Shown: one piece after another, positions 1-34,173 of the stretch | How the letters are laid out: each line of letters opens with the position of its first letter | How positions within the stretch are numbered: position 1 is the first letter of the stretch | NCBI GenBank assembly: GCA_030612005.1 | Contig: JAUWOU010000004.1 | Location: 4,238 to 68,237, forward strand | DNA length: 64,000 bases | Origin: Candidatus Thorarchaeota archaeon | GTDB lineage: Archaea > Asgardarchaeota > Thorarchaeia > Thorarchaeales > Thorarchaeaceae | Direction: 5' to 3' | Notes under the pieces: model-generated | The model's database searches: none | The model's input: only the letters and a program-made list of their open reading frames with translations | What the model was told of the DNA's origin: nothing | Made by a program: the position numbers and the translations under genes

Positions 1-1722
1 AGCATCCATCTGTTCTTCATAGGTATCCAAAGGAGTAATCTTCATCCGTGCGATATTATCCAAAACACTCAGGTCTAAGATTCTTTTTACTTGAACTCCC
101 ATTTTGACTGCTGCGGCCATCCTCTGTGTAAATCCAATGATGACTCTGAGCATTCGGTAGGTCTTACCAATAGGAGAGTATGTATCAATCTCATGAAGAG
201 CACTCTGAGTCAGAAAATCCTCCTTAATCATCCTAGCAGCTTCAAGGATGGCACGTTCAGACTCAGGAAGAGCGTCTGGTCCTACGAGCTGTACGATTTC
301 TCGTAGTTCCTGGTCTTTCTGCAAAAGTGCAAGAGACTCTTTAACTAATTCTGGCCAATCTTCGCCGAGATTTTCTATGTGCCATTTTTTCAATGTGCTA
401 TGATACAACGAATAACTAGTGAGTGTGTTAATAGCTGGGAAGAATCGTCTTGCGGCTAGGTCCTTATCTAATGCCCAAAATACCTTGACAATTCTCAATG
501 TTGCCTGAGTTACTGGTTCTGAAAAATCACCACCTGGAGGTGATACAGCTCCACAAATTGTGATTGAACCAAGTCTTTCATCAGAAGCCAGTGTCTTCAC
601 TCTACCACCACGTTCGTAAAATTGAGCAAGACGCGAACCAAGATATGCAGGATAACCTTCTTCTGAGGGTAGTTGACCAAGCCTTCCAGAAATTTCACGA
701 AGTGCCTCAGCCCATCGTGATGTGGAATCTGCCATGAGAGCAACATCGAACCCTTGGTCTCTGAAGTATTCTGCAATCGTAACTGCAACGTAAATTGATG
801 CCTCTCGAGCAGCTACTGGCATATTGGAAGTATTAGCTATCAGAACGGTACGTTCCATTAGCGGTCGTCCGGATTTTGGATCTTTCAAGCTAGGCCATTC
901 CTCAAGTGCCTCAGTCATTTCATTTCCTCGTTCCCCACAACCAACGTACACAACCACTTGAGCGTCTGCCCACTTAGCGAACTGGTGAAGGGTAACTGTC
1001 TTCCCTGTACCGAAACCTCCCGGAATTGCACCGGTACCTCCTTTTGCTTGGGGCATAAAAGTATCAATAACACGCTGTCCAGTCAATAGAGGTGTATCCA
1101 TCGGTGCGCGATCCTTGAATCCTCTACCTACTCTGACTGGAGTACGTTGCATCATAATAACATCATGAATATCACCATGACTATCTTTTACCTTGCAGAT
1201 TGTTTCAATTACTGTATATTCATCTTCAGAGGCGATTTCTACAACTTCACCCTGAACACCGACAGGAATCATGATCATTGTTGTGAGGATACCTGTTTCA
1301 GGTACTTTACCAATAATATCTCCTGGTGAAACCTTGGCGCCAACCTCAACTGAAGGTTTGAATTCCCATTTCTTCTCTTTGTTAAGTGCATCGACATTGA
1401 GTCCCCTTGAGATGAAATCACCAGACATTTCCCGTAGTTCAGGAAGTGGACGCTGAATGCCATCATAAATAGCTCCAAGAAGTCCAGGACCTAATTCAAC
1501 AGAAAGAGAATCTCCAGTACTTATCACGGGTTCTCCCGGTGCAAGACCAGAGGTTTCCTCATAGACCTGAGCTGTGAACTCCTTGTCACTTACCTCGATG
1601 ACCTCCCCAATCAGTTTTTGGGTCCCAACTCGTACTACTTCATACATTCGAACAGAAGGTAATCCAGAACATTTTACAACTGGGCCCGCAATGGTTTCAA
1701 TTCGTCCTGTCGATTCAGTCAT
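1..1722 (-). CDS. atpA: A/V-type ATP synthase subunit A, runs off the window edge (absent from ORF track)
   Basis: Minus-strand translation [17 protein letters not shown]..., Walker [33 protein letters not shown]; an alternative ATG exists at 1740. Confidence 0.95.
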
Positions 1723-1747
1723 GGTTTGTATCTCCAACATTTTGCGA

Positions 1748-2068
1748 TTAGATATTGATCTCGATTCCCACAGCACGTCTAATAAGTTCCTTCAATATTG
1801 CTTCATAAGTACCAGTAGATCCAGTTCTATCTGAAATCAGTAAAATCACAGGTACAGGGGACTGTGAGAGTTCAACGACTGTGTCTTCCACCTCTTTAGC
1901 AAGAGGCTCCGTGATGATAATTAGCCCCATATTAGGGTCTCGAAAGAAGGAGAGCAGTAATTCTCTTGTTTCATTAGGAGATTTAGGAGTTGCACATTCA
2001 CTGACTCCGACTAATCGGAATCCTGTAACTGTATCTATATCACCAATGACAGCAATCTTATCAGACAT
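1748..2068 (-). CDS. atpF: A/V-type ATP synthase subunit F
   Basis: KIAVIGDIDTVTGFRLVGV ... LIRRAVG motifs; directly upstream of atpA. Confidence 0.93.
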   Translation of the reverse strand: MSDKIAVIGDIDTVTGFRLVGVSECATPKSPNETRELLLSFFRDPNMGLIIITEPLAKEVEDTVVELSQSPVPVILLISDRTGSTGTYEAILKELIRRAVGIEINI

Positions 2069-2157
2069 GAGACCATCCAACTAATTTTGACTTGCGCCTT
2101 GTTTCTAAGGTCTATTAAAAAGCATTTGGAAATTGACCGGTGACATGTTTCATCGTG

Positions 2158-2640
2158 TCAACTTGTAAACGCGGAGATTATGTGTCCTTCTTCAACGAGT
2201 GTCCAACAATATAGACATTTAAGCTGGATTGGCTTGTGTGATATGACTTGGTACTTGCTATGAATTGGCTCTCGTTCTTTATTGGTGACACATCTCTGAT
2301 TAGGACACTTCATGATATCAGTTAAAGTGTCTGGGAGCTCAATTTGGATCTTTTTAATTAGTTTATTGTCTTTGATTAGATTGATTGTTGCTCCGGGTGC
2401 AACAAGAGCAATTCGAGCTACTTCTTCGTCTTTGAGAAATCGATGTTCAACCTTAACAATGTCCTTCTTCTCAATCTTAGAGCTGCTTATGTTCATTGCC
2501 AGAGATACAACATGACCATCCTCACCAGTGATTCTTAGAATCTTAAGCACCTCTAGAGCCATTCCTGCCTTGATGTGGTCAATAACGGTTCCATTGTGAA
2601 TTTTCACAATTCTGATTTTATCGTCTCCAACTTCAGACAT
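2158..2640 (-). CDS. pyrI: Aspartate carbamoyltransferase regulatory subunit
   Basis: IHNGTVIDHI, KKDIVKVE, CPNQRCVT...CLYC zinc site. Confidence 0.95.
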   Translation of the reverse strand: MSEVGDDKIRIVKIHNGTVIDHIKAGMALEVLKILRITGEDGHVVSLAMNISSSKIEKKDIVKVEHRFLKDEEVARIALVAPGATINLIKDNKLIKKIQIELPDTLTDIMKCPNQRCVTNKEREPIHSKYQVISHKPIQLKCLYCWTLVEEGHIISAFTS

Positions 2641-2769
2641 ATCAAATCACGCGCAGGTCCGTCCTACTAATCACTCTTTTTTAGACTTTCCTCTTTTCAT
2701 TCTGAATATACAAAGGCGAAGGTTGATATGGACAGCATAGGAGCAGTCCCAGAAGACGGTGATACTGTT

Positions 2770-4116
2770 TTGGTTCTCGAAGGTCTTGGTAAATCACTTA
2801 ACTCGGCTCTGAAGAAACTCTTTGGTGCAAATGTCATTGACGAGGAATTGGTAAAGGAGCTTGTCAAAGACATACAACGAGCCCTGCTAGTAGCTGACGT
2901 CGATGTCAACCTTGTAATGGCAATCACTAAGAGAGTAGAAGAGCAGGCATTAGATGAAAACTTGCCTAGAGGAATTTCTCGACGAGAACATGTCATTCGT
3001 GTAGTCTGGGATACTCTTGCATTCTTTCTTGGAGAAAAAGCTGTACCACTGACCATCAATCCTGGGAAGCAAAATCTAGTAATGATGGTGGGTATTCAGG
3101 GTTCGGGAAAGACTACGACAATTGGAAAACTAGCCAGATACTATCAGAAGAGAGGGATTAAGACAGGGGTTATCTGTGCAGACAATTTCAGACCGGGAGC
3201 ATATAATCAGTTGATGCAGCTAGCTGAGAAATCAAACGTACCTTTTTGGGGTGATGAGGACGAGAAAGATGCAGTCAAGCTAGCGAAGAAAGGATTCAAA
3301 GAGATGAAGAAGAAGGGCATTGAATTAATTCTCTTGGATACTTCAGGTCGCCATAAAGAGGAAAAAAGTCTCATAAAGGAGATGCGTGATATCTCCAAAT
3401 CTGTTAAACCCCAAGAGATTATTCTTGTTATTGATGGTACTCTGGGACAACAGGCAGGAGTTCAGGCAGAAGCATTTCGTAAAGCAACTCAGATTGGATC
3501 AATCATAATTACAAAATTAGACGGTAGTGCAAAAGGTGGCGGAGCAATATCCGCAATAGCAGCAACGAAGGCACCAATCAAGTTCATTGGTCTGGGAGAA
3601 GGAATGGATGCAATAGAACCTTTCAATCCAACCAAATTTGCTGGTCGTCTACTTGGAATGTCAGACATTGGAGGCTTAATTGAAAAAGTCAAAGAGGCTG
3701 AAATCGAGGTTGAAGATGACGTTATGAAGCGTATCATGAAGGGACAATTCACTCTGAAGGATATGATGGCTCAACTCAACCAATTGAAGAAAATGGGTCC
3801 AATTGGAAAAGTGATGGAAATGCTTGGTCTCCAGTATAAACTTCCAGAAGGTATGGCTGAGGTTCAAGAGGAGAACATGAAGAAATGGGAAGTTATCATG
3901 AACTCCATGACAAAGGAAGAGATGGAAGAGCCCAAACTCATCAAAGCAGCAAGAGTCAAACGTATTGCTAAGGGTTCAGGTACATCTTTGAAGGATGTGA
4001 GAGACCTCCTAAAACAATACGACCAAATGAAGAAAATGATGAAACAGATGGGAAAACAACGTCGTGGAAGGAAAGGAGGCATTCCAGGTCTTCCAGGCGG
4101 TCTACCGGGAATGTAA
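2770..4116 (+). CDS. srp54: Signal recognition particle protein Srp54
   Basis: GIQGSGKTTT, DTSGRH, TKLDGSAKGGG, Met-rich M domain; TTG start at 2770 after GGTGA preferred over 2728. Confidence 0.96.
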   Translation: MVLEGLGKSLNSALKKLFGANVIDEELVKELVKDIQRALLVADVDVNLVMAITKRVEEQALDENLPRGISRREHVIRVVWDTLAFFLGEKAVPLTINPGKQNLVMMVGIQGSGKTTTIGKLARYYQKRGIKTGVICADNFRPGAYNQLMQLAEKSNVPFWGDEDEKDAVKLAKKGFKEMKKKGIELILLDTSGRHKEEKSLIKEMRDISKSVKPQEIILVIDGTLGQQAGVQAEAFRKATQIGSIIITKLDGSAKGGGAISAIAATKAPIKFIGLGEGMDAIEPFNPTKFAGRLLGMSDIGGLIEKVKEAEIEVEDDVMKRIMKGQFTLKDMMAQLNQLKKMGPIGKVMEMLGLQYKLPEGMAEVQEENMKKWEVIMNSMTKEEMEEPKLIKAARVKRIAKGSGTSLKDVRDLLKQYDQMKKMMKQMGKQRRGRKGGIPGLPGGLPGM

Positions 4117-4128
4117 ACTGGAATTGGG

Positions 4129-4710
4129 ATGACAATGCGACATTTCCTGATCCTATTTGATGACATTCCTATTGACAAGATATCAGTAAAATCAGGCAAT
4201 AATTCTCCTGAAGTTATCACAGCAGCAAGATGTGTGAATGTAGGACTTTTCATTTCAGGAAATCTACGAAGAGATGTAGTAGTATCTCTAGCTAAAGGAA
4301 CGCCGGATGACTTGAAACTCATCTCATTCCCAGGAGCTAGTCTGAAACGTGTTTCACCTGATGAACGATCAATCTCGTTCTTTCTAATGAAAGCCATTTC
4401 AATTGCTGATGGGTTATTGATGGATTCTTTTGAAATAATGGATAATGGGATTGAAGTGAGAAGATTTAACTTGAAGAATTTCTTCGAATCACTAAATCCC
4501 GATAGAGTCTATATATCAACCTCAGAGATTTCCTCTAACACCATAAATGTTACAGAGTATGAAAATTCACTACTAATCTACTCCATTGGAAAACAATTCG
4601 AATCATTACAAGCAGATGGCAAATGGACACAAGTAGAGCTACCCCATTTTCCACATCCAGAGAGATTCATTCTGGATGTCAATATGATAGTAGACAGAAC
4701 CTCTTCTTGA
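4129..4710 (+). CDS. TrmY-like SPOUT methyltransferase, divergent C-terminus
   Basis: ARCV..LFIS..LRRDV and LKRVSPDERSI match the TrmY N-terminal half; C-terminal SAM-binding motifs not recognisable. Confidence 0.65.
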   Translation: MTMRHFLILFDDIPIDKISVKSGNNSPEVITAARCVNVGLFISGNLRRDVVVSLAKGTPDDLKLISFPGASLKRVSPDERSISFFLMKAISIADGLLMDSFEIMDNGIEVRRFNLKNFFESLNPDRVYISTSEISSNTINVTEYENSLLIYSIGKQFESLQADGKWTQVELPHFPHPERFILDVNMIVDRTSS

Positions 4711-4737
4711 ACACGAAGAAAGCTTCATAAAAACCCA

Positions 4738-5148
4738 TACCTTACAATTGTGAGTGAACTGTAAGAGACTCCTGTGTTCCACCTTTCTCACGACTGCTGT
4801 CGCCAGCATCTGAAAGACCTGAGTCATCCAAAGAGTCGCAAGCTTTGCCCCTCTTCACTGGAACATCGTTCCTCCGATGGGACTTGGCTTCTGTCCGCTG
4901 CATTGACTCACACGCACCAGTAGGTGTGATAGCAGTCGGTGTTTCCACAGCATTTACCATGGCAGGGTCTTCACTCCTCGCAAACGACTCAAGAGTCGCC
5001 TGGTCATAGGGGTCGGCCACGGACTCCCCTTTCAAGGCTGGTGTCCTCTGGGGGAGTGCGGACTTCCCATGAGAAGAACGAGTCTTCCTCCGGGCTTTCA
5101 GTATGGCTCTATCTCTAGGAGTGAGCCACATCCCTAGTCCGTTCTCAT
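4738..5148 (-). ncRNA. Putative long omegaRNA/reRNA overlapping the tnpB 3' end
   Basis: Collinear homology and compensatory pairing with the stand-alone copy at 25597-26050; position typical of TnpB reRNA; ends approximate. Confidence 0.7.
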
Positions 5149-6478
5149 TTCTCAGTGAAGGAATGAGCATAATAAGGCGCTTTCCAATGTTGATGGCGCC
5201 ATTCAGGTCGGCGTTCAGTTTTTGTCCACAGGTGGTACAGATGAAGAGGTTCTGTCTGGGTCTCTGTCCCTTGTGTCCACACTTGTGACACATGATTGAC
5301 GTCCATTGCTCAGGGACTGCCTTGAACTTTTTGGGGTTGAATCCAAGGGATGTAAGCTTGTGTTCTAATTTATCACGGACTCTCGCAAAGGCCCAGCGAT
5401 GGATCATCCCTCTGTACCTTCGTCCTCTATAGTTACCTTTTCGAGCAGTATTCCTGATTCCCTTCAGTTTCCCAATTGACACATAGAGGTCATATTGCCT
5501 AGTCATCTCTCTGATGTAAGCAGAGATATCTTTCACAAGCTTCTTGTCATGTTCTTTACTGACACGTTCGCGCTTTCCACTTAATTCCCTAAGCTGGGCA
5601 GTTGCTCTATCAGGATTTCCACCCTTGGTAATGAGTTGTTCCTTCTCTCGTTGAAGGGAAGAAACTCTCTCATCCAAGTTTTTCATACGCTGGAGCTTGT
5701 CTGGCTGTTTCCAGTATCGAATCTGCCTGTAGCCCTTCCTTGTGAGAAGGACTGAACATGCAGCCTTGTTAATCCCAAGGTCGATGGACAATACAGCAGG
5801 GGGTTTTCCAGTAGAATCGATTTTCTCAACAGCGAGAGTCACCGTGAAGATAGCCCACCACTTCCGACGAGAATCCTTGAATATTCGGACTGTCTTGACC
5901 TCCCCCTCTTTCATCCGATTGAGATGGAAGGAGGAGATGGAGAGGGGAATCATGAGTTTGTCGTGACGCTTTCTCTCTTCAGAAACTGAATCCAAAGAAT
6001 CTCTAAGCTTCAACCAGTGACGAATCTCAAGATTTGGATTATAAACCAACTTGAAACGTTTGTTAAAAGCAAAGCGTGGGATCTTCCGTGTGGAATATCC
6101 CCTAGTACGTAATGGCTTTGCACCACCCCGTTCAAGATAGCTCTGCCACATGGCAATAGCTGTATCTCGACACTCCTGAAACTCATTTACAGAGATGTTT
6201 GGAAACCTAACTTTGAAGTCATGAGGTACATAACTTCGGTCCGCCTTTCCTTTAGAAGCAGTCAGGGTGAGTTCTTCCAATTTTGAGGTGTCAATTCTCG
6301 TTCGTTTCTTACCTGTCAGTAACTCTTCTTCACACCTTTCAATCACTCCTAGATACGCCTTGATGACTCTACTATCTCTACCAGTTATCCGGTTGAGGCG
6401 AGTCTTCTGATTATCAGTCATCGAGTCCCATCTGATTGGAACCTTCACACTGATTATTGTACCCTTGGAGCGACCCAT
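4742..6478 (-). CDS. tnpB: Divergent TnpB-family RNA-guided endonuclease with rearranged RuvC and ~135-aa tail overlapping its RNA
   Basis: RuvC-I SIDLG, Zn ribbon CHKC...CTTC, RuvC-III NADLNGAINI; RuvC-II reads VSIGKL, with PEQWTS downstream. Confidence 0.85.
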   Translation of the reverse strand: MGRSKGTIISVKVPIRWDSMTDNQKTRLNRITGRDSRVIKAYLGVIERCEEELLTGKKRTRIDTSKLEELTLTASKGKADRSYVPHDFKVRFPNISVNEFQECRDTAIAMWQSYLERGGAKPLRTRGYSTRKIPRFAFNKRFKLVYNPNLEIRHWLKLRDSLDSVSEERKRHDKLMIPLSISSFHLNRMKEGEVKTVRIFKDSRRKWWAIFTVTLAVEKIDSTGKPPAVLSIDLGINKAACSVLLTRKGYRQIRYWKQPDKLQRMKNLDERVSSLQREKEQLITKGGNPDRATAQLRELSGKRERVSKEHDKKLVKDISAYIREMTRQYDLYVSIGKLKGIRNTARKGNYRGRRYRGMIHRWAFARVRDKLEHKLTSLGFNPKKFKAVPEQWTSIMCHKCGHKGQRPRQNLFICTTCGQKLNADLNGAINIGKRLIMLIPSLRNENGLGMWLTPRDRAILKARRKTRSSHGKSALPQRTPALKGESVADPYDQATLESFARSEDPAMVNAVETPTAITPTGACESMQRTEAKSHRRNDVPVKRGKACDSLDDSGLSDAGDSSREKGGTQESLTVHSQL

Positions 6479-6865
6479 TCATTTCACCTGAGCTGATTTA
6501 AACTTCTGACCTTTCTCTTTCGAGTTCACTCCCATCTTTGTTCCCAAGAGTGGTTATGTACTCGTACTATTTTCTATTACATTAACTGATTTAAACTTAT
6601 GAAGCAAAAATACAAATTGACCTGATTCTCTTAACTAATAGAAAATAATACACTAAACGTATTGCAAACAAATTATAATTACTTATAAATAAGCGTACAT
6701 ACTACTAACTGCCTTGGTGGAACCCAAAATGAAGGAAATATGGTGTTTTCTGGATCATACAGGATGGTTCAGAAGTGTATTAGAAGCCAATAGATTCACC
6801 TTATGGAACGAGGTAATTCTTGAACTACAGGAATATGGGGTCCACCCCAGTAAAGATGCTAAAAT

Positions 6866-6947
6866 ATTATGTACGTCCGTACATAATAAACAAATTTCTA
6901 TGTACGTGTGTACAGAGTGTACCGATTTTTCTGTACAACCGTACAGA
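6866..6947. promoter_or_regulatory. Three TGTAC-N4-GTACA palindromes at 31-bp period
   Basis: 6870-6883 TGTACGTCCGTACA, 6901-6914 TGTACGTGTGTACA, 6932-6945 TGTACAACCGTACA, just before GAGGAGGT RBS-like sequence. Confidence 0.7.
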
Positions 6948-6961
6948 GGAGGTATGAATCA

Positions 6962-7618
6962 ATGACTACAACACAATTAGAGACCCATCCCCCTCTAGAT
7001 GATATTCAAGAGTTCAGAAGATCCGAGTCAAACACAATCTACATCAAGAGCCCAATCGTGCAAGGAGTAGCTGGACTATTGATTGGTTCTGTCTGGCGTG
7101 TGGACTATTCTGATAGATCAATACGTCTACTTAATTCTAATCTCATATCACATCATGAGAAGGTTCCTCTTACTCCGTTTTCCATCCCTGATAGACATCT
7201 CCGTGCTGTTCGAAAGATTGGGGCGGCATTGTTCAATGTGCGACGATTTGATAGACTATTCCTTATTGACAAGACTGTTTCATCAATAGGGTATGTCGTC
7301 AATCGAGATGACGAAACTCGTCTGTTTGTAGACCGCACAGATGCTGAGTTGTATGTTTCCCAGATAGGTGAAGGCGCAGAGATAGTGACCCAACCACTAA
7401 CGAAGAAGACAACCCGTAATGCTCAGAGGAATAGTGCAGAGATTCGGACTGAGATGCTTCGACTGATGACTCAGTTCATGACCGGGACGGGTGCATTGAG
7501 GCAACTCAAGACCCTGAAAGAAAGAGGGGTAGACCCCAAAGAACTAGAGAAGATCTGGTGTGATGCACATGAACAAGACAATATCCCAGCTATCCTTGGG
7601 ACGTTCCTCTACGAGTAA
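6962..7618 (+). CDS. Hypothetical protein (~218 aa), first gene of a two-gene unit
   Basis: Open frame, RBS-like GAGGAGGT at ~6946, ATG at 6962; no recognisable motif. Confidence 0.7.
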   Translation: MTTTQLETHPPLDDIQEFRRSESNTIYIKSPIVQGVAGLLIGSVWRVDYSDRSIRLLNSNLISHHEKVPLTPFSIPDRHLRAVRKIGAALFNVRRFDRLFLIDKTVSSIGYVVNRDDETRLFVDRTDAELYVSQIGEGAEIVTQPLTKKTTRNAQRNSAEIRTEMLRLMTQFMTGTGALRQLKTLKERGVDPKELEKIWCDAHEQDNIPAILGTFLYE

Positions 7619-10600
7619 GGAACAGAAAATCCTAGGTATGAGGATGGTTCCGGCGCAGCCTGCAAAGGTCCTAGCTAATTCCATCTACGCAGGTTTAGCA
7701 GCTCTTGTCAGGCTTGCAGAACGACGCGTGACAAAGGACCCTGAGGTCATCCGTCTGTTCAATGAGATCAAGCAGATGTGGAAAGAAGCATGTGCCGAGT
7801 ATAAGCGATTGAAGAAGATGGGAATCCCTGACTTTTCACTGATTTTGAACATTGAGCATAATATGAGAAAGAACTACCTTGGGATGCTATGGTACAGTAC
7901 ACGACCCTTTGGAAACACAGAATACAAGCGAGTCTATCGATGGAGAGAAGGGACCATCGGACCACTCAATGAACTCCTCAACTATGCAGGGGCAGAACTG
8001 AGGAGTGTCGCAGCCAAATACTACAGCTTCCCTTTGGTGCAATATTATCAGGTCAGAGAACTTTCAGACAAAAGGGTGGATTTTGTCCACAAGAGCGTTG
8101 CACCGAAGTATCCTCCAGAGAAGGGAGTGAAGGTCTCGTGGACAGCAGCTTATCCAGGGAACTCAAAGCATCCTCTTGTCCGTGTTAGACACTCCACCCT
8201 TCCGGAGATGGACTTTATTGACATGATACGAGCTCATGTGATCGAGCTGGTCCGTCAGTGTTTCATACATAATGTTCCAAAGATGGCCTCCAGGAGGTAT
8301 ATTCGACTCCTCATCTATAGACTGCAACCCTTCCTGGACTGGGTGTATACTGATAGAGCTCAGGGGCGAGGAAAGTTCTGGCCAGATGCAGACAAGGTCC
8401 TTCGTGAGATGGTCCTTGAGGTGCGAGCAAGATACAGCAGGCGCTTAGGAAGGACTCCACGACTCACCCATCAGATTGAGTCTGGTTCAAGGAAACCCTC
8501 GATGGCGGACATAGTGACTCAGATCAACAAAGCCTACAGACAGGACACTTCCAAAAAGATGAAGCAGACTACCAGTGAACTTCTGAAGTTGATGGGTTAT
8601 TCTGTAGATAAGAAGAGAAAGACACTCACACTGAGAGCAGACACCTCACCTGCCATGAAAAAAGCACTTACAAAAATTGCTAAAGATATGAAGTACAAAA
8701 CCAGAGAGGTCAAGGAGTTCAAAGAACCTATCAAATCTGCCCTTACTGATGATGATGCACAGGACCTCTATGATAATATCCTCAGTCTGAGCCAGCGAGA
8801 GGGGAATGACTGGCATAGAGTACTCTTTGGAGATATGTTCCACCCCTCATCCCTGCGACAGCTTGTCTATGCTGGGGACAAATTTCTGGATGATACATCG
8901 GAATACTTGATCGCAGCTGAGGTCCCTGTGAAGAGTATCTCTGGGAGTGGACAGGCAGATATTGTGGTGTCAGTACGACGGTCCGTTGTTGGAGAAATTC
9001 TATACACCCCGATCGTGACGTTTGATGTCAAGACAAAGACTGGAATAAACTGGACTATGCGCGGAAAGCAACCGCGAACGAAGAAGGAAGACTCGCGGAT
9101 TCCAGGGCTTGTTGTTCGAAAGCGAGCATTGACTTCCACTGAGTGGTCTCGAATAGTCAATAGTACACCTAGCCCCACAGAACTCTCACAACTCCAGAGC
9201 TATGAGTCTGGTCTGCTAGAAGAGTATAGGGAATTGGTGAAGCAAGATCCAGACCACCCTAAGACCCTCTGGAAGGGAATCGTGCTATTGGACAGTGATG
9301 AGGACCGTGAAACTCTATTCACCCTCCTACCGGAACTTGTGAAATCAGTCATCAGCGACCTGAAGACTGGTCCATCCCCAGACGGACGGACCCTGTACAC
9401 ACTGAATTCACAAGGAGTTAAAAAAAGAGGGCAGTATAAGTTTGGCATAGTCTTGCTTCCAGCACTGGGACCGCACCATCTGCTTAAGCAGGCAATACCC
9501 ATTGAATCTATCATTGAAGATGATCCCTTCAGAAACAGGGTCAAGGATGATGTCCACTTCACCCTGTATCTGACAGTTCCCTCTGGAGGGTCTTCTGGTG
9601 AGTCTGCAGCATGGATATCGCGCAACTGGCATCTTTTACACTATCTGTCTGACCTTAGAGAAACCTCTGAAAGACAGAATATCAAGTGGTTAGATCTGAC
9701 TGGGGTACTCGCAGAGAGCGGTGTACGTCTTCAACGACTCCGTCTCGTTGGAGACCAGAAGCCCAGGAAGTTATCAAGAAGAAGGTTGGAATCCCTCCAA
9801 CAGCTAACAGAAGAGATTGAATTCCATGACCTCAGTAGCAATCTCAAGGAGTACTTCTTCTCGGATGCTACCACTGCCATTGAGGAGCTTGAAGCACAGA
9901 TAAGAGAGTGTATACAGCAGGCATCAGATGAGAGGTCTATTATCGTCGTAGATGGATGGCCCCAGCTTCGTAATATCATCCCCTCTCACATGGACTCATT
10001 ATTGAAGACCTTAGAACATAGGATCATCGAGTGGCTGCCAAAGGAAGATGCAGAGGTCATCTGGCTTGATAGACCAGTTCCTGTCCCGATACTGTCTGCT
10101 ACCTATCAGTTGCACAGGATGACTCCCCTACCTCACGACTCACCCAGATGGTTTCTCCTTGATGAGGTCATATGGAACCTCCCGACCTCTCCCCGAAATT
10201 TTGGATGGAGAACCCCTCGAAGGGAGGACATCAGGGTCATTGCACAGGACACTCCTACCTCGAATAAGCCAAGGGTGCTATCCTTCGGAGTTCCACACTT
10301 GAAGGGGTGGGCACGACGGTTTCGAGCAGACTCTAAGAGAGAGCGGACGGTTTCAGTGGATGAGGTGTTTGGTGATAATGAAACCTATGGGCGTGCGTTC
10401 TACTCTGCATCGTATGTAAAGGTCGGTCTTGGCTCTAGAAAGATCATACTTGATGATATCTACAAGTTAGTACCCAGTCTGAGTAGAGTCCGTGATACAC
10501 AGAAGGGGTCTTCAGATGAATCATCGAAGAATAATTCTCAATCAAAGTATAGAGTGAAGAGACAGATTCTTGGAAAGACCTCATCCTCTAGGGGAATCTG

Positions 10601-12503
10601 GGATCGAGTGTCCTTCATTCAGCAAAATATGGAGCCTCACCGAGGTCGACTTGGCACATATTCATCCATTGAGGATATCACCAGGGGCAAGGTCAGGAAA
10701 CCCTCCCGTGAAACCCAACTAGTATCAAGAACATCACGACGACCTCCGGTTGTGCGACCAACTCCTGTAGAGTTAATAGACACAGACCAGACCCGACATG
10801 ATGAGATCCTTCGTATAAAAAGAACTGTAGAGTTCTTGCTGCCCAAGTGTGATATTTTTGATGAATACTGGGAGGGTGTTCTGAAGAGTACGCTCAAGCT
10901 CTGTAAGAAGTATCAGAGGGGAGAGAATACATCTCTTGATACCTTTGACCAGCTACAGAAACTCTATGCGAAGCTTGAGGGCTCCCGAGACCTCTGGAAG
11001 GACCTCTCATATGAACGAAGATTTGGTAGCGGTCGTGAACAGATCCCTCGAAGTATACTCTCCGTAGTACGAGAAAAGCCAGAGCTCATCACTAGGTATG
11101 GGATTCCACTCTTCCTATTACTTCAAGGAGTAATGAGTGAGGACGACTCAGAGTCTTTGAAGGTCCATGTACCTACCCTTTGGAGCGCAGTGGCAGACTG
11201 GCAATGGGTGCACATGGGTTTCAACCCCCAGAATGACCAGCAGGGACTTGCACAATATAGATTTGATATTCCTGCCCTATGGTCAAATCTTCTCTGGAGA
11301 GCACAACAACTCGCCTCAGGACCTGTCAAATCTAGGCTTTTTGAGAGTCACAAGATTGGGGAACTTATTCCAAGGGGTGATGACCAAGTGTGGCTGGTCT
11401 TTCAGGAAAAGCCAAGGAGTGAGAAGATGATTGCAGGACTCCTCACTGGAGTCAACATGACTGCTCCACTACGGGGTACTTATGAAACAGTAGTAGACCT
11501 CGGTAAACTAGCAGCTTCTGTTGATTACACCCTGGATGAGTCTTCTGATGAACGACAGACCATCATCATCACTCGATTTGATGGGATGGACCTCCTTTGG
11601 GCAAAGCACCTGGAAGAGATTGATGATTCGGATTGGGCGCTCCTTGGAAAGATCAGATACAGAGCACCGAAGGAGGGGATAAGTGCTCCAATCAGAGGAG
11701 TCACTATCTCAGGGGTACCGAAAAAGGTCATTGAAAGAATACCATTTCCTGATGATACTGCCATTCCCTCAGACCTCAGAGTACGAGTGGATGAGAGTCT
11801 GAAACAGATCGTGAGTGATGCAGACCCAGTTCAATCAGTGCGTATCAATGTCACTATCAATGAAGAGTCGGGTTCGTATCTCATCAATCTAGTGGGACAA
11901 AATGAGGAACTCCTAGAGGAACTAGAATATGAAACTACTGATGAGGTGATCGGTTTCTTACGAAGTCCGATGACCAGGGGCGATTATTATCAGGCAGAGG
12001 ATGGTCGGCTGTATTCTTGGAATCCCCTGAAGGACGTTTCGTATGATGATGAGGTTGAAACAACAAATGGACTGTTGAGTCTGACCTTCCTTCGGCCACG
12101 AGTGGAGAATGAGCTATTTCTCAATGGAACATATGTCCTTCCGAGGACTGCACAGGAAGTCATTGAAAGTGAGTTGGGTGAGGAAGTCGTCATGGTGGCA
12201 ACACCGGACCTGGCCCGGTATAGGAAGGGTTGGAAACGGTGCTGGAATGTCTGGTTCATGAAATCTGATCTTGGCGAGGGAATGCGGTCAATGGAACAGG
12301 TATCCTGTACAATCTATGATATTGCATTACTCTTTGAGTGTGAGCAGATATTCGATGTTGATATGAAGAAACACTATCCAACATGGACATCAGTCAACCA
12401 TCTAGCTGAGGTCAAGATTCCAGATGAACTAATTCATCATAGTCGAATGGGACAGCATATGGATCTCAGAAACCTCGCTGAAAAGTATGGGTTATCTTAT
12501 TAG
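7560..12503 (+). CDS. Very large hypothetical protein with PD-(D/E)xK nuclease-like motif and degenerate P-loop-like region (start possibly 7638)
   Basis: 4.9-kb open frame; AEVPV...GQADIVV...FDVKTK...QLQSY; PSGGSSGES and SIIVVDG. Confidence 0.6.
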   Translation: MMHMNKTISQLSLGRSSTSKEQKILGMRMVPAQPAKVLANSIYAGLAALVRLAERRVTKDPEVIRLFNEIKQMWKEACAEYKRLKKMGIPDFSLILNIEHNMRKNYLGMLWYSTRPFGNTEYKRVYRWREGTIGPLNELLNYAGAELRSVAAKYYSFPLVQYYQVRELSDKRVDFVHKSVAPKYPPEKGVKVSWTAAYPGNSKHPLVRVRHSTLPEMDFIDMIRAHVIELVRQCFIHNVPKMASRRYIRLLIYRLQPFLDWVYTDRAQGRGKFWPDADKVLREMVLEVRARYSRRLGRTPRLTHQIESGSRKPSMADIVTQINKAYRQDTSKKMKQTTSELLKLMGYSVDKKRKTLTLRADTSPAMKKALTKIAKDMKYKTREVKEFKEPIKSALTDDDAQDLYDNILSLSQREGNDWHRVLFGDMFHPSSLRQLVYAGDKFLDDTSEYLIAAEVPVKSISGSGQADIVVSVRRSVVGEILYTPIVTFDVKTKTGINWTMRGKQPRTKKEDSRIPGLVVRKRALTSTEWSRIVNSTPSPTELSQLQSYESGLLEEYRELVKQDPDHPKTLWKGIVLLDSDEDRETLFTLLPELVKSVISDLKTGPSPDGRTLYTLNSQGVKKRGQYKFGIVLLPALGPHHLLKQAIPIESIIEDDPFRNRVKDDVHFTLYLTVPSGGSSGESAAWISRNWHLLHYLSDLRETSERQNIKWLDLTGVLAESGVRLQRLRLVGDQKPRKLSRRRLESLQQLTEEIEFHDLSSNLKEYFFSDATTAIEELEAQIRECIQQASDERSIIVVDGWPQLRNIIPSHMDSLLKTLEHRIIEWLPKEDAEVIWLDRPVPVPILSATYQLHRMTPLPHDSPRWFLLDEVIWNLPTSPRNFGWRTPRREDIRVIAQDTPTSNKPRVLSFGVPHLKGWARRFRADSKRERTVSVDEVFGDNETYGRAFYSASYVKVGLGSRKIILDDIYKLVPSLSRVRDTQKGSSDESSKNNSQSKYRVKRQILGKTSSSRGIWDRVSFIQQNMEPHRGRLGTYSSIEDITRGKVRKPSRETQLVSRTSRRPPVVRPTPVELIDTDQTRHDEILRIKRTVEFLLPKCDIFDEYWEGVLKSTLKLCKKYQRGENTSLDTFDQLQKLYAKLEGSRDLWKDLSYERRFGSGREQIPRSILSVVREKPELITRYGIPLFLLLQGVMSEDDSESLKVHVPTLWSAVADWQWVHMGFNPQNDQQGLAQYRFDIPALWSNLLWRAQQLASGPVKSRLFESHKIGELIPRGDDQVWLVFQEKPRSEKMIAGLLTGVNMTAPLRGTYETVVDLGKLAASVDYTLDESSDERQTIIITRFDGMDLLWAKHLEEIDDSDWALLGKIRYRAPKEGISAPIRGVTISGVPKKVIERIPFPDDTAIPSDLRVRVDESLKQIVSDADPVQSVRINVTINEESGSYLINLVGQNEELLEELEYETTDEVIGFLRSPMTRGDYYQAEDGRLYSWNPLKDVSYDDEVETTNGLLSLTFLRPRVENELFLNGTYVLPRTAQEVIESELGEEVVMVATPDLARYRKGWKRCWNVWFMKSDLGEGMRSMEQVSCTIYDIALLFECEQIFDVDMKKHYPTWTSVNHLAEVKIPDELIHHSRMGQHMDLRNLAEKYGLSY

Positions 12504-12558
12504 TGGTAAATCTTACATATTTTCTTACATTTTGCGTTAGTTGCTATTTAGGAATCTA

Positions 12559-12683
12559 TTATCTACGAAGAAACAGAAGACTTCATAATGTCATATTTTC
12601 CAGAATATACTTGACTCCTATTGCCTACTAATGTTACTCCAGAATTTGACAAGCAACGGCTTATCTACGAAGAAACAGAAGAC
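12559..12683 (+). repeat. Exact 23-bp direct repeat TTATCTACGAAGAAACAGAAGAC (12559-12581 and 12661-12683)
   Basis: Read directly; one copy intergenic, one inside the 5' end of the GTPase gene. Confidence 0.9.
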
Positions 12684-13796
12684 ATAGCGCAGCGGATAAT
12701 AGAATTAGAAAAACTTCTGTCTCTTGCCCCACGCCATAAGGGTGGGGAACGAATGGTAGGAGACTACCGAAAGAAACTAGCTCAGCTCAAGGCACTATTA
12801 GAGAAAAGACGAGAGCAAGATAAAGCCAGAAAGAGTGGAGGTACAGAAGAAGGAGTCGTTCGGAAAGAAGGCGCTGGACAAGTTTGCTTGGTGGGAGTAA
12901 CAAATTGTGGAAAATCAAGCATCATTAACGCTGTGACAAATGCAACTTTTGACATAGGAGATTATCCATTTACTACACCTATACCAACTCCAGCAATGCT
13001 AACTTTGGAAGACATCAACATCCAACTTGTAGAACTACCAGGAGTGTTCAAAGGAAGTCATAAAGCAGGAATTGGCAGACAGGCTCTTGCAGTAGCTAGA
13101 AACACTGACTGTATCGCAATAATCATTGATTTGTCACAGGACATCGATACTCAGATGAATGTAATTCTGGGTGAATTGGATGCTGCAAGAATTAGGTTGA
13201 ACAAGGAGAAGACTGCTGTTAGAATTGAGAGGGTTGGTCTCGGCGGTCTCATGATCTATGGTGCTCAGAATTATCAAGGTGATATTGAAGAAGTAATGGA
13301 ATATCTAAGAGCACGCAGAGTATCAAACATCATTGTCAGATTCCAGAAACCAGCCACTTTCGAACAACTCTTGGATGCAATGGATGCGAGTGTTTCTTAT
13401 GTACGCGCCATGGTAATTGCAACAAAGGGTGATTCGGAAGGATCTGAAGCAAGATTCAAAGAACTGGAAGAAAAATACAGTACAAGATTCGATATCATTC
13501 CAATATCTGCCGAAAAAGGAGAAAATCTTGATGGAATGAGTTGGACACTCTACAACCATCTTGATATTCTGAGGGTATACACCAAGATACCCGGACAGAA
13601 GAGGGAAAGGAAACCAATAGTCCTACCTGAAGGTTCAGTAGTTGAAGATGCAGCCGGTAAGGTTCACAAGGAGTTGTTTGTAGAACGCTTCCGGTCAGCT
13701 GTAATCCTTCGAGAAAATGACAAAATTAAACGTAGAGTTGTTGGTCTTAACTATCCACTCCAAGATGGCGACGTTCTTCAACTGGCACATAGTTAG
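12621..13796 (+). CDS. DRG/OBG-family GTPase with TGS domain
   Basis: GVTNCGKSS, YPFTT, ELPG, TKGD, C-terminal TGS (RVYTK...LQDGDVL). Confidence 0.88.
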   Translation: MPTNVTPEFDKQRLIYEETEDIAQRIIELEKLLSLAPRHKGGERMVGDYRKKLAQLKALLEKRREQDKARKSGGTEEGVVRKEGAGQVCLVGVTNCGKSSIINAVTNATFDIGDYPFTTPIPTPAMLTLEDINIQLVELPGVFKGSHKAGIGRQALAVARNTDCIAIIIDLSQDIDTQMNVILGELDAARIRLNKEKTAVRIERVGLGGLMIYGAQNYQGDIEEVMEYLRARRVSNIIVRFQKPATFEQLLDAMDASVSYVRAMVIATKGDSEGSEARFKELEEKYSTRFDIIPISAEKGENLDGMSWTLYNHLDILRVYTKIPGQKRERKPIVLPEGSVVEDAAGKVHKELFVERFRSAVILRENDKIKRRVVGLNYPLQDGDVLQLAHS

Positions 13797-13814
13797 TTGA
13801 ATCTGGAGGCATGA

Positions 13815-14555
13815 ATGTCCATGGAACTACCAAATATTGTTGTGGTTCTAGTTGAGCCTGAGGAACCTGGTAACGTTGGTTTTGTTTCTAGAGTCTTAGC
13901 GAATTTTGGTGTTCCAGAGTTGAGAATCGTGGGATGGGATCCACGGGAAGATATGACTGCACAAATCTTCTCCGTACGTGCAAACAATATTCTTGATTCT
14001 GCAGGTATTTTCGACGATTTACCATCAGCATTAGAAGATATAGAAGCGGCTTGGGCGACATCAGCAAGAGCAGGTAGAAATCATAGCGTAACCAGAGCTC
14101 TGGTTCCCCTCAAAGAGTTGCCTGACCCAACAAACCTTGAAGGAAAAATCGCTCTTGTCTTCGGAAGAGAGAGTTCAGGACTCACAAATGAAGAATTAGG
14201 TCTCTGTGAACTGGCTTTCACAATACCGACCTCAGAGGCGTATCCAAGCCTCAATCTCAGTCATGCTGTTGCGGTTGTTCTTCATCACTTGTTCTCAAAT
14301 TATGGACTTGAGGAACCAAGTGAAATCGTACTACCCAGAGCAGCTACTCGAAAAGAACGAGATCAGGTAATGATCTTCTTAGATGAAGTAATCGATGGAC
14401 TCAATCTGAAAGACTACAGAAAACCAATTGCAAAGCAGGTCTTCAGGAATTTACTAGGAAGAGCCTACATGACAGGACGTGAAGTGACTACCTTAACTGG
14501 TATCGCTCGAAAACTGTACGACCTTGTTAATGATTGCGAGAAGGTAGAAGATTAA
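13815..14555 (+). CDS. trmJ: TrmJ/LasT-family RNA 2'-O-methyltransferase
   Basis: VLVEPEEPGNVG, VFGRESSGLTNEEL, YPSLNLSHAV. Confidence 0.9.
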   Translation: MSMELPNIVVVLVEPEEPGNVGFVSRVLANFGVPELRIVGWDPREDMTAQIFSVRANNILDSAGIFDDLPSALEDIEAAWATSARAGRNHSVTRALVPLKELPDPTNLEGKIALVFGRESSGLTNEELGLCELAFTIPTSEAYPSLNLSHAVAVVLHHLFSNYGLEEPSEIVLPRAATRKERDQVMIFLDEVIDGLNLKDYRKPIAKQVFRNLLGRAYMTGREVTTLTGIARKLYDLVNDCEKVED

Positions 14556-15091
14556 ATGCCATAACCCATTTTTCGTTTGAGTTCTGGGTCAATCTTGTCA
14601 AACACAATCTTGCATGGGGTTGGCATCTTGGGTGCCGCTTTCTTTAGTGCAGCCCTTGCTGCTTTGATGTGCTCACGGTTTGTACGGATTGTGATGAGAG
14701 CCTGCTTTGGTTTGACTCTAGCCGCGGAACCTATGACCTTGCCCCAAGCCCTTCTCATTCCATCCTGCACACGATCCGCACCAGCTCCAGAGATCATCTT
14801 GTTCTCTCGAAGGTAGTGGTAAGGCTTGACACGAATCCGAAGATGATAGTTACTCCTACCAGCATTTTTGTTCATATCACGGTTGGATGCAATACGTGCA
14901 GACTCAAGAGCCTGGTGTCTAATCTGGCATCTCTCAAGACCAATCAGAGATAATTCAACCTCAAATTCACCACCAGGATTGCCCATGTCAAAGCTGACTA
15001 TACGGCTAGCTGGTCTCCGATGGATATACTTCTTCCTCACGAAGGCGGGTCGGTCGCACTCTCGATAACATTGTCCGGGACGTTTTCCCAT
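14552..15091 (-). CDS. rpl10e: 50S ribosomal protein L10e (uL16)
   Basis: RPGQCYR, ALESARI, RENKMISGAGADRVQDGMRRAWGK. Confidence 0.96.
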   Translation of the reverse strand: MGKRPGQCYRECDRPAFVRKKYIHRRPASRIVSFDMGNPGGEFEVELSLIGLERCQIRHQALESARIASNRDMNKNAGRSNYHLRIRVKPYHYLRENKMISGAGADRVQDGMRRAWGKVIGSAARVKPKQALITIRTNREHIKAARAALKKAAPKMPTPCKIVFDKIDPELKRKMGYGI

Positions 15092-32801: not shown

Positions 32802-34173
32802 GGCGCGGTCTAAACAGCTGCGTAAATCCTGAACGAACCTAGACATCAATGAAACCAATAGTTGAATAAAGACTATTCTTGTATGAGCTTATTAGCTCCC
32901 AGCAAGACCCATTATCGAACCTGAATGTTGATCAACAAGGCTTACAGGTATGAACTGGACCCGAACAACATCCAGAGATCATCCCTTGCTCAACATGCTG
33001 GAGTAGCTCGTTTTGCCTATAACTGGGGTCTCGAGAAAAGGATTACACGGTACAAGAACAATCAGGGTGACGACCGGTTCACTAACGCTATGAAGCAGCA
33101 CAAGCTCCTCAACTCCCTGAAGAAAATAGAGTTCCCATGGATGTACGAAACCTCGAAGTGTGCACCCCAGGAAGCCCTGAGAGACCTCCATAGAGCCTTC
33201 AAAAACTTCTATCGAGGACTCAAGTCTGGGAAGAAAGTCGGATTCCCACGTTTCAAGAGGAGAGGAGTCAGGGACAGCTTCAGACTGACCGGGGCCATCA
33301 GGTTCCACGAGCGAGCAATCCAGCTCCCTAGAATCGGAAAAGTTCGTATCAAAGAGAAGAGGGAGCACTATTACAAGGGAAGGATACTCTCAGTCACAGT
33401 GCGACGAAGGGCCAACAGGTGGTTCGTGTCAGTCACTGTGGAGGAGAACATCATTGACCCGCAGCCTGTAAGAGGGGCATCAGTGGGGGTCGACCTGGGA
33501 GTGAAGACTCTGGCCACACTCTCGGATGGGACCACCTTTGCAAACCCACGAGCCCTTGGAAGACGCTGAGGAAACTGCGACAGCTCTCAAAGAGCCTGTC
33601 ACGAAAGGAGAAGGGGAGCAAGAACCGCGAAAAAGCGAAATTACGACTTGCAAAGATGTACTTGAGGATCTTCAATGTCCGACGAGACACACTGCACAAG
33701 CTGACGACCTACCTTGCCAAGAGCCACAGTAAGGTAGTGATCGAGGACTTGAATGTGTCAGGGATTCTGAAGAACAGAAGGCTTGCAAGAGCCATAGCTG
33801 ATGTGGGGTTCTACGAGTTCAGACGACAGTTGGAGTACAAGTGTGGATGGTACGGTTCTGAGCTTGTCGTCGTTTCAAGGACCTTTCCCTCCTCGAAGAT
33901 GTGTTCACAGTGTGGGCACAGGAAGAAGGAACTCTCTCTATCAGAGAGGAAGTATAATTGTGATCAGTGTGGACTTGAAATCGATAGGGACCTCAATGCT
34001 GCACTGAATCTAGTCGCCGTCAGTTTGCCGGAGACTGAAAACGCCTGCGGAGAGGAAGTAAGACATAGCAAATCTTCCGAGATTTGCAATGCAGCCTCGA
34101 TGAAACAGGAACCGAACATCATCCCGGACTCGATATCCAGGAATGTCTAGGTTTCGGGGAACGGCGCGGTCTA
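32802..34173 (+). mobile_element. Non-autonomous IS607/IS605-type tnpB element without transposase
   Basis: 11-bp direct repeats GGCGCGGTCTA (32802-32812, 34163-34173); inverted AACCTAGACAT/ATGTCTAGGTT (32836-32846, 34143-34153). Confidence 0.7.
32925..34150 (+). pseudogene. tnpB: Canonical TnpB split by a one-base frameshift near 33565
   Basis: KAYRYELDP..ARFAYNWGL and VGVDLG in one frame; RKLRQLSKSLSRK..., VIEDL, CSQC..CDQC, DRDLNAALNL in the next. Confidence 0.85.

Follow-up and report, generated by a model that had tools for sequence, protein, structure and literature searches.

Asgard archaeal homologues of Cas1 were reportedly first described by Makarova et al. in 2020 (CRISPR J). TnpB proteins that occur together with such 'Asgard Cas1s (aCas1s)', which form the groups Cas1H-Asgard-1 and Cas1H-Asgard-2, have been described by Altae-Tran et al. 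(2023, PNAS; PMC10691335). In its accessible portion, that paper cites Makarova et al. (2020) for the Asgard Cas1 homologues, regards aCas1 as a likely transposase on the grounds that repeats often flank the loci, and reports a conserved GTTCACTCA motif behind tnpB. Our literature search returned nothing on TnpB transposons of Thorarchaeota, and PMC10691335 was the only relevant paper for aCas1; the literature on Cas1, TnpB, Asgard archaea and casposons held no further description of the element reported here.

This element lies in a 64,000-nt stretch of DNA from a Candidatus Thorarchaeota archaeon (the window; part of contig JAUWOU010000004.1 of assembly GCA_030612005.1, hereafter contig C205), the genome of which comprises 3.64 Mb and is 90.9% complete. 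We consider it likely that window positions 4731–12580 are an intact-looking, recently inserted Asgard aCas1-TnpB transposon, with a giant protein as its transposase and TnpB for homing. Membership in the published kind is indicated by the position of a tnpB gene beside a giant Cas1-like gene, together with GTTCACTCA. The gene order in the window is SRP54, a TrmY-like gene (PF04013), the TnpB/Cas12f-like gene, a gene for a 218-aa protein, the giant open reading frame (ORF), a DRG GTPase gene, SpoU and L10e (Table 1). A first-pass annotation of the same sequence had recognized the last two genes of the element as a two-gene unit with a 1647-aa ORF, and had suggested a new defence system or mobile element, possibly coupled to TnpB. 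Its reading frames and positions, and the motifs at the residues it named, were confirmed; the word 'new' had to be given up, given that Asgard aCas1-associated TnpBs with GTTCACTCA already appear in the accessible part of PMC10691335.

The element measures 7,850 bp and is accompanied by an 8-bp target-site duplication, CTTCATAA. This bears out the GC-richer block of about 7.8 kb that had been picked out by eye between the TrmY-like and DRG genes: GC content is 0.462 over 4731–12580, versus 0.419 in the left flank and 0.423 in the right flank. The insertion point is the 55-nt spacer between these two genes, and CTTCATAA is found twice in the window and once in the aligned empty sites of the two closest genomes. 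The first-pass annotation had pointed to synteny as a way of finding an empty site. Among the 24 DRG loci of genus relatives, 23 contain SRP54, TrmY and DRG in adjacent positions, approximately 55 nt apart, without a tnpB or giant-gene match; the remaining locus is interrupted by a contig end. Public cold-seep metagenomes independently confirmed this. In three of four runs (X2, X3, and X4), contigs join position 4722 directly to position 12581 and thereby skip 7,858 nt, and the X2 joint contig matches the window without a difference along 523 nt of its left flank. Given this empty-site joint in metagenome contigs, closely related populations contain the filled as well as the empty allele; the presence of the latter within the same population in turn indicates recent movement, and the insertion between the TrmY-like and DRG genes is apparently recent. 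The eight letters at the joint are ambiguous, i.e., compatible with either side. As there are exactly eight of them, a duplication of 17–18 nt at this insertion was rejected in favor of 8 bp plus filler. Metagenome depth was 113–159 over 4501–5102 and approximately 10 in the interior of the element, a contrast that an end present in many copies would produce.

We sought copies of the element by blastn of window positions 3001–15000 against its own genome. The segment at 4730–5144, which contains the right end (RE, in tnpB orientation), recurs at approximately 90% identity on at least 12 contigs, and the segment at 12315–12557, i.e., the left end (LE), recurs at approximately 80–90% identity on at least eight. 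The two segments are adjacent on contigs C121, C167, C92, C9, C12, C166, and C114, in unrelated flanks. These gene-less mini elements of approximately 700 bp contain RE and LE only, joined by a common linker of approximately 44 nt, and start exactly at 5144, which is the end of the TnpB protein core. They spread after one internal deletion and appear to be mobilizable in trans. The linker is missing at the corresponding place in the full-length copy and shows as loose metagenome ends at 5144 and 12315; on contigs C254, C8, and C225, RE and the linker are kept and LE is different or lost. A full copy, 82% identical to that in the window, is present on contig C171. Searches of five sister genomes for complete mini copies returned mostly RE-only or full-length matches.

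The mini copy on C92 provides a second insertion, with a 9-bp duplication, ATCCTTATA, that is single-copy in three other genomes (G039, G040, and G053). Candidate flanking repeats of 11 and 10 nt adjoin the copies on C121 and C9, respectively; that of C9 belongs to a longer imperfect repeat of approximately 45 nt and was counted as unverified. With mini copies in unrelated flanks, an empty site in nearly all relatives and metagenome contigs with the exact joint, it is scarcely credible that the giant gene belongs to a non-mobile family of host recombination or repair paralogues and that the repeats are artefacts of assembly or duplication. The RecA-like domain of the giant protein and the Rad51-like neighbors of some subfamilies, both described below, would suit such a family; the copies and empty sites contradict it.

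The two ends of the element differ in their precision. The tip of RE is precise and invariant, whereas LE is ragged: its conserved sequence stops at differing points between copies and is followed by a copy-specific filler of 13–35 nt. For the window copy, positions 12559–12581 are an exact copy of 12661–12683, i.e., codons 14–21 of the DRG gene approximately 100 nt downstream, and the 22-nt match of filler to flank was reached in none of 500 shuffles. The filler of the C121 copy has a 12-nt match approximately 60 nt downstream (reached in 2 of 500 shuffles), the best flank match of the C92 filler was not significant (34 of 500 shuffles), and the LE junction of the C9 copy is a more complex repeat. 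As empty-site contigs lack the filler, it must have arisen with the insertion. This pattern suggests that one of the two junctions is completed by synthesis-dependent repair. LE also holds two CTTACA repeats, at 12512 and 12524.

Table 1. Coordinates of the element, its parts and the neighboring genes in the window
Feature	Position	Strand	Basis or remark
Target-site duplication CTTCATAA, left copy	4723–4730		Single copy in empty sites of G039 and G040
Right end (RE, tnpB orientation) with omegaRNA-like structured region	4731–5143	-	In mini elements too
tnpB ORF	4742–6478	-	578 codons; Pfam PF07282, E 4.9e-14; PADLOC Cas12f/Cas12u models
TnpB protein core, aa ~1–445	5144–6478	-	dN/dS 0.10
AT-rich divergent intergenic region between tnpB and the 218-aa gene	6479–6961		GC 0.35
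218-aa gene	6962–7618	+	From ATG; no fold assigned
Giant 'aCas1'-type protein	7644–12503	+	1619 aa from M29; ORF open from 7560
Cas1-like alpha-helical catalytic domain, aa ~29–280	7644–8399	+	VIA-align fold matches; invariant residues
PD-(D/E)xK nuclease domain with QxxxY, RecB/Cas4/MGME1-like, aa ~400–640	8757–9479	+	VIA-align fold and invariant motif
RecA/KaiC/RAD51-like domain, aa ~661–958	9540–10433	+	Foldseek and VIA fold matches
Candidate second, degenerate Cas1-like helical domain, aa ~1066–1240	10755–11279	+	Low-Z VIA matches
Left end (LE, tnpB orientation)	12315–12557	+	Last 63 giant-gene codons and 54 nt; in mini elements too
Copy-specific filler between conserved LE and duplication	12558–12580	+	Without counterpart in empty-site contigs
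Target-site duplication CTTCATAA, right copy	12581–12588		Alignment with empty sites; contig joints
SRP54	2728–4116	+
TrmY-like gene (PF04013)	4129–4710	+
DRG GTPase	12621–13796	+

The tnpB gene overlaps a conserved RNA structure. TnpB contains the RuvC-I motif SIDLG, a RuvC-II motif in which glutamate is replaced by glycine (SIGKL), the RuvC-III motif NADLN, and a CxxC...CxxC zinc finger. TnpB types with such a 'rearranged RuvC-II' (E to G) and with NADXN are described in the accessible part of PMC10691335. Since the RuvC-I and RuvC-III residues and a known rearranged RuvC-II type are kept, this TnpB is probably a nuclease rather than a mere targeting module. Comparison with the C189 copy showed a sharp change along the gene: codons 1–445 have a synonymous divergence (dS) of 1.0 and a ratio of nonsynonymous to synonymous divergence (dN/dS) of 0.10, as opposed to a dS of 0.07 and dN/dS of 1.27 for codons 446–578. 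These last 133 codons are therefore constrained as nucleotides and not as protein. What appeared to be an unusual TnpB of 578 aa is a core of approximately 445 aa plus an open frame across its own guide-RNA gene. A weak second TnpB-like match was observed elsewhere in the window, at approximately 33536–34051 on the plus strand (C205:37773–38288), with 24.7% identity to TnpB aa 283–447 (E 1.9e-4).

The omegaRNA-like region comprises approximately 330–400 nt, overlaps the 3' end of tnpB and terminates with the element itself at its right end. The consensus structure of this region, derived from 21 RE copies of two subfamilies, holds 63 base pairs, 28 of them with compensatory changes; 96% of cells are canonical, versus 37–48% after sliding the partners. 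GTTCACTCA lies at 4751–4759 (minus strand), in the loop of a terminal CTTACA/TGTAAG hairpin, which is followed by AU.U.GGUU and then by the element tip, ...ATGGGTTT, at 4731. The motif occurs at the 3' end of tnpB, in tnpB orientation, in 11 of the 14 tnpB copies of the genome, and 72 matches to it were found genome-wide compared to approximately 28 expected. Because the structured RNA stops where the element does, the predicted omegaRNA would take the flanking sequence as its guide, starting with the duplicated 8 bp. No candidate target-adjacent motif could be derived from four insertions.

The giant ORF extends from 7560 to 12503 on the plus strand and encodes 1647 aa from a GTG codon; its database twin (P0004) has 1619 aa and starts at M29, i.e., at 7644. 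We compared AlphaFold2 models of aa 29–990 (predicted local distance difference test, pLDDT, 84.6; predicted template modeling score, pTM, 0.83) and aa 991–1647 (pLDDT 79; pTM 0.47) with the PDB, and assessed residue conservation from an alignment of 54 full-length relatives. The N-terminal domain (aa 29–280) resembles Cas1 in predicted fold. With VIA-align it matched 8flj_A (Z 13.3, root-mean-square deviation 3.8, 175 residues aligned), 4n06_B (Z 11.8), 7kft_D (Z 11.7), and the casposase 6opm_A (Z 10.8); among the best 50 rows, 10 of the 11 matches on model residues 1–254 were to Cas1 or casposase. The Cas1 matches align only from chain residues of approximately 85–115 onward, which corresponds to the C-terminal catalytic domain of Cas1; the N-terminal beta-sandwich was not seen in the model, which starts with helices at residue 6. 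E99/E121, N137 (in the motif GPLNxLLNYAG), H211, D218, and D221 are invariant; as candidates for the metal-binding Glu, His, and Asp triad of Cas1, together with N137, they follow the order of E171, N206, H237, and D249 in the Asgard Cas1 alignment. The sole local hhalign match places GPLNxLLNYAGAxL on the Cas1 signature PxNxLLSxGxxLL and is not significant.

The nuclease domain that follows carries the PD-(D/E)xK pattern noticed in the first-pass annotation at E454 (AAEVPV), D467 (QADIVV), D489-V-K491 (FDVKTKTG), and Q544...Y548 (QLQSY). The pattern is real: none of the 54 relatives deviates at E454, D467, K491, K493, Q544, or Y548, and residue 489 is aspartate or glutamate, which speaks against a chance motif. 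A nuclease fold was also predicted, with VIA-align matches to MGME1 (5zyt_A, Z 8.1) and Cas4 (8d3l_I, Z 8.1). No column of aa 400–640 has cysteine in at least 30% of sequences, so the four iron-sulfur cysteines of Cas4 are missing and the domain is better described as RecB/MGME1-like than as Cas4 proper.

The degenerate Walker motifs in the first-pass annotation fall within a predicted RecA-like fold. The best Foldseek hits of this domain (E of 4.8e-4 at best) were RAD51 paralogues, KaiC, and DnaB, and VIA-align gave Z values of 9–11.7 over model residues 627–951 in 36 of the best 50 rows. The Walker A region, PSGGSSGES (674–682; family consensus SxTSSGxSAAW), conserves S675, S678, G680, and A683 and lacks the P-loop lysine, while the Walker B-like hhhhD is kept in IIVVDGW (794–800, with D798). 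Given the missing lysine, the domain is probably not an ATPase. Approximately 650 further residues lie outside the Cas1-like, nuclease and RecA-like domains. Part of them, aa ~1066–1240, may tentatively be regarded as another Cas1-like domain in degenerate form: Cas1 or casposase accounts for nine of the top 17 VIA-align rows of the C-terminal model, with Z of only 4.6–5.5, and hhalign placed the family motif PxLLxLYGNNLFL on the Cas1 signature without significance. Foldseek returned nothing at E ≤ 0.001 for the model of aa 991–1647, and neither the N-terminal domain compared to the C-terminal third nor the C-terminal third compared to 30 Asgard Cas1 proteins was significant in hhalign. Outside its own family, sequence searches with the giant protein gave chance-level matches only in Pfam, none in PADLOC or the PDB, and E ≥ 0.11 for the family profile against the PDB; no usable match was obtained in the ESM Atlas for its aa 29–345. 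The only Rfam match, sR55 at 9513–9569, was below threshold (E 0.12) and was taken as chance.

The family of giant proteins is confined to Asgard archaea as far as sources are named. A search of 1.84 billion cluster representatives yielded 191 relatives with E ≤ 1e-3. In addition, 62 relatives with lengths of 1400–1900 aa were identified; none of the 62 carries a Pfam domain, and all that are source-named come from Asgard archaea, under the names Thorarchaeota, Lokiarchaeota or Promethearchaeati. Within the genome itself, giant-gene matches occur on 31 contigs, approximately 22 of them substantial, and 57 of the 87 genomes of the class contain matches, usually several each; the homologues are thus not single-copy syntenic core genes. 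With this and the predicted nuclease fold, neither of the refuting outcomes named in the first-pass annotation was borne out. The association with tnpB is widespread. Upstream sequence of 400 nt or more was available at 30 giant-gene loci; the start of a divergent tnpB is present at 19 of these, the 218-aa gene followed by the contig end at four, and neither gene at seven. This arrangement is kept across relatives of 25–35% identity. Together with the defined ends, duplication, empty sites, copies and mini elements, it upholds the earlier suggestion of a mobile element coupled to TnpB. The co-occurrence held in part, since only seven of 37 loci, which belong without exception to the clade closest to this element, have the 218-aa gene upstream of the giant gene. 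A subfamily of approximately 1420 aa, on contigs C17 (2258–7500) and C218 (2110–7203; loci L125 and L126), always has a Rad51-like ATPase gene directly after it. No tnpB was detected near the C17 and C218 genes, and the subfamily may represent another type of element or may have been domesticated.

All three genes of the element are under purifying selection; comparison with the C171 copy gave dN/dS values of 0.19 (giant gene) and 0.21 (218-aa gene). The alternative that a defence or other cargo module is carried passively by a TnpB insertion sequence, a defence role having been one of the options in the first-pass annotation, is very unlikely. A nuclease beside an ATPase-like domain, a restricted taxonomic range, a patchy spread (57 of 87 genomes) and a raised GC content are all typical of defence islands too. 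However, PADLOC returned no match for either the giant or the 218-aa gene, both lie inside a mobile unit whose approximately 22 contigs in one genome are far more copies than usual for a defence gene, and the head-to-head position with tnpB is fixed inside this unit across distant relatives. Moreover, nothing else encoded in the element is a candidate for moving it.

A further alternative places the transposase elsewhere. Y1 and serine recombinases, as in IS200/IS605 and IS607 elements, leave no target duplication, and strand exchange by serine recombinases is conservative. No PF00239 match was obtained for any of the three genes in the element, and Y1 TnpA (PF01797) is absent from the genome at its 90.9% completeness, with positive controls that worked. 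As the element has target duplications, a Y1 or serine recombinase is a poor fit and staggered integration of the Cas1 type fits. Nonetheless, the element could be an IS607-type derivative moved in trans by the serine recombinase TnpA of a sister element, with the giant protein as an accessory, for example in end processing, recombinational repair or copy-back with Rad51-like partners. The CTTACA direct repeats at both ends would suit helix-turn-helix (HTH) binding sites, and on C17, C189, C218, C249, C42, and C180 the giant gene is succeeded by a Rad51/KaiC-like gene. We regard this explanation as unlikely. The 8- and 9-bp duplications were verified against empty sites, and IS607-type recombinases make none; in this element and at the 19 of 30 loci, tnpB and the giant gene occur with no recombinase in the DNA seen; and all 54 relatives retain the residues predicted to be catalytic in the Cas1-like and nuclease domains. 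Shared end recognition with the recombinase-bearing elements on C20 and C189 is also doubtful, since their TnpBs are only approximately 23% identical to that studied here.

Several observations weigh against the giant protein as a Cas1-type transposase, and the first group concerns these sister elements. The only two intact PF00239 serine recombinases of the genome, both of the IS607 TnpA type with a MerR-HTH and a resolvase domain, adjoin giant homologues on C20 and C189 (loci L124 and L123, respectively). The C20 element (609–8516) encodes a TnpB-like protein of 701 aa, a giant protein of 1659 aa and a serine recombinase of 205 aa; that on C189 (9030–18278) encodes a serine recombinase of 204 aa, a giant protein of 1426 aa, a Rad51-like protein of 332 aa, a homologue of the 218-aa gene and a TnpB-like protein of 715 aa. 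Recombinase fragments adjoin giant genes at L033, L036, L037, and C218. Sister subfamilies thus possess a classical transposase, for which the giant protein could act as an accessory in IS607-like elements. The second group concerns the Cas1 assignment. Pfam gave no Cas1 match in the giant protein at E ≤ 0.1 and no PF01867 match genome-wide at E ≤ 1; hhalign against 30 canonical Asgard Cas1 proteins gave probabilities of 0.1–0.6%; and the family profile found no match to the Pfam-positive Asgard Cas1 proteins of 1325–1367 aa in two other genomes (G123 and G138). The Z score of 13.3 is near the warning level of the tool, as helical domains reach such values easily. With all sequence tests non-significant, the N-terminal domain is Cas1-like by predicted fold and motif order only, and its membership in the Cas1 family shows through fold only. 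The third group concerns the ends. These are asymmetric and lack terminal inverted repeats, unlike those of casposons, and no inverted pair connects the two ends among the longest 25 of 369 inverted pairs. Duplication length varies (8 and 9 bp, with candidates of 10 and 11 bp), and no repeat of at least 8 nt adjoins the left end in two of the six complete copies (C167 and C12).

On balance, we consider that the giant protein is most likely the integrase or transposase and that TnpB and the structured RNA serve homing. The nuclease domain would cut the element out, and a 3'-OH end would be joined to a staggered target by the Cas1-like site, in the manner of casposase. The RE junction would be made precisely, and the LE junction would be finished by host repair synthesis, leaving ragged ends and filler taken from the nearby flank. 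By analogy, the TnpB-omegaRNA complex may then recognize and cut the empty site (duplication and left flank), upon which the element is copied back. Such cutting of empty sites and copying back are established for IS200/IS605 TnpB in bacteria.

A bolder version of this scheme is possible, though we think it doubtful. In it, the giant protein would represent a mechanistically new type of transposase made of a single chain, in which the active and degenerate Cas1-like domains form an asymmetric 'dimer' beside an excision nuclease and a RecA-like scaffold. Only the omegaRNA end would be joined precisely to a staggered target, the other end would be made by synthesis-dependent repair, and TnpB would enforce retention. 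The ragged LE, the filler of 13–35 nt from 40–100 nt away and the duplications of 8–11 bp would all follow from such a model, and the guide of TnpB would be renewed at every insertion. If true, this would be the first Cas1-based cut-or-copy transposon working with an RNA-guided nuclease.

The 218-aa gene has 27 homologues, the named ones from Thorarchaeota and none with a Pfam domain. Its protein had no Pfam match above cut-off, no PDB sequence match and no usable ESM Atlas match; weak matches to PSF1_C in six of 21 members were taken as chance. Complex prediction for the 218-aa protein with giant aa 29–640 gave a score of 0.00, i.e., no call either way. Just upstream of the gene start, at 6867–6945, three palindromic boxes of the form TGTAC-N4-GTACA recur with a spacing of 31 nt and may serve the transposon as operators or promoter elements. 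Beyond the element, the TrmY-like protein shares 45–85% identity among genus relatives, often aligned over its first 120–130 residues only, and SRP54 and DRG share 80–97%, far above their TrmY-like neighbor.

TnpB-carrying Cas1-based transposons have so far been proposed from genome comparisons only. The copy described here offers exact ends, a natural mini substrate of approximately 700 bp, verified scars of 8–9 bp, an empty-site allele and named candidate catalytic residues in two domains, such that the idea of Cas1 as a transposase becomes directly testable with a well-resolved and apparently recently active element. Calling Cas1 the transposase requires that a role for an IS607-type recombinase first be ruled out. 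If true, a Cas1-type integrase beside an RNA-guided nuclease would be of interest both to research on CRISPR origins and to the building of genome-insertion tools.

Compared to known systems, the element shares with casposons a candidate transposase of Cas1 fold (6opm_A among its matches) and a target duplication. It differs in that its three genes include no family B polymerase, no Cas1 beta domain or terminal inverted repeats were seen, the Cas1-like domain shares its chain with nuclease and RecA-like domains, and TnpB is present. The target duplication of casposons is 14–15 bp, compared to 8–9 bp here. The likeness to Tn7-like transposons, including the type V-K CRISPR-associated ones, is by function only: a PD-(D/E)xK nuclease (TnsA), an integrase, an ATPase-fold regulator (TnsC), and an RNA-guided protein of TnpB/Cas12 lineage. 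In contrast to these, the integrase candidate has a Cas1 rather than a DDE fold, three functions are predicted within one chain, the P-loop lysine is lacking and TnpB is probably a nuclease. As in IS200/IS605 and IS607 elements, the omegaRNA overlaps the 3' end of tnpB and stops at the right end, the ends are asymmetric with subterminal hairpins, and gene-less derivatives keep the ends, like palindrome-associated transposable elements (PATEs); these families are set apart by the missing Y1 TnpA in the genome, the missing serine recombinase in the element and the target duplications present here.

The closest likeness is to the aCas1-TnpB transposons, as they appear in the accessible portion of PMC10691335: both have an Asgard host, a TnpB beside a giant diverged Cas1 homologue, GTTCACTCA near the 3' end of tnpB and flanking repeats. 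That portion places a hypervariable stretch upstream of GTTCACTCA, whereas in the 21 copies analyzed here the variable sequence starts approximately 25–30 nt downstream and the motif sits in a hairpin loop. Relative to the same portion, in which we found none of them, the present element adds exact ends with duplications of 8–9 bp set against empty sites, mini derivatives, a precise RE and a ragged LE with filler copied from the flank, the 218-aa gene, and a domain map of the giant protein that includes a possible second Cas1-like domain.

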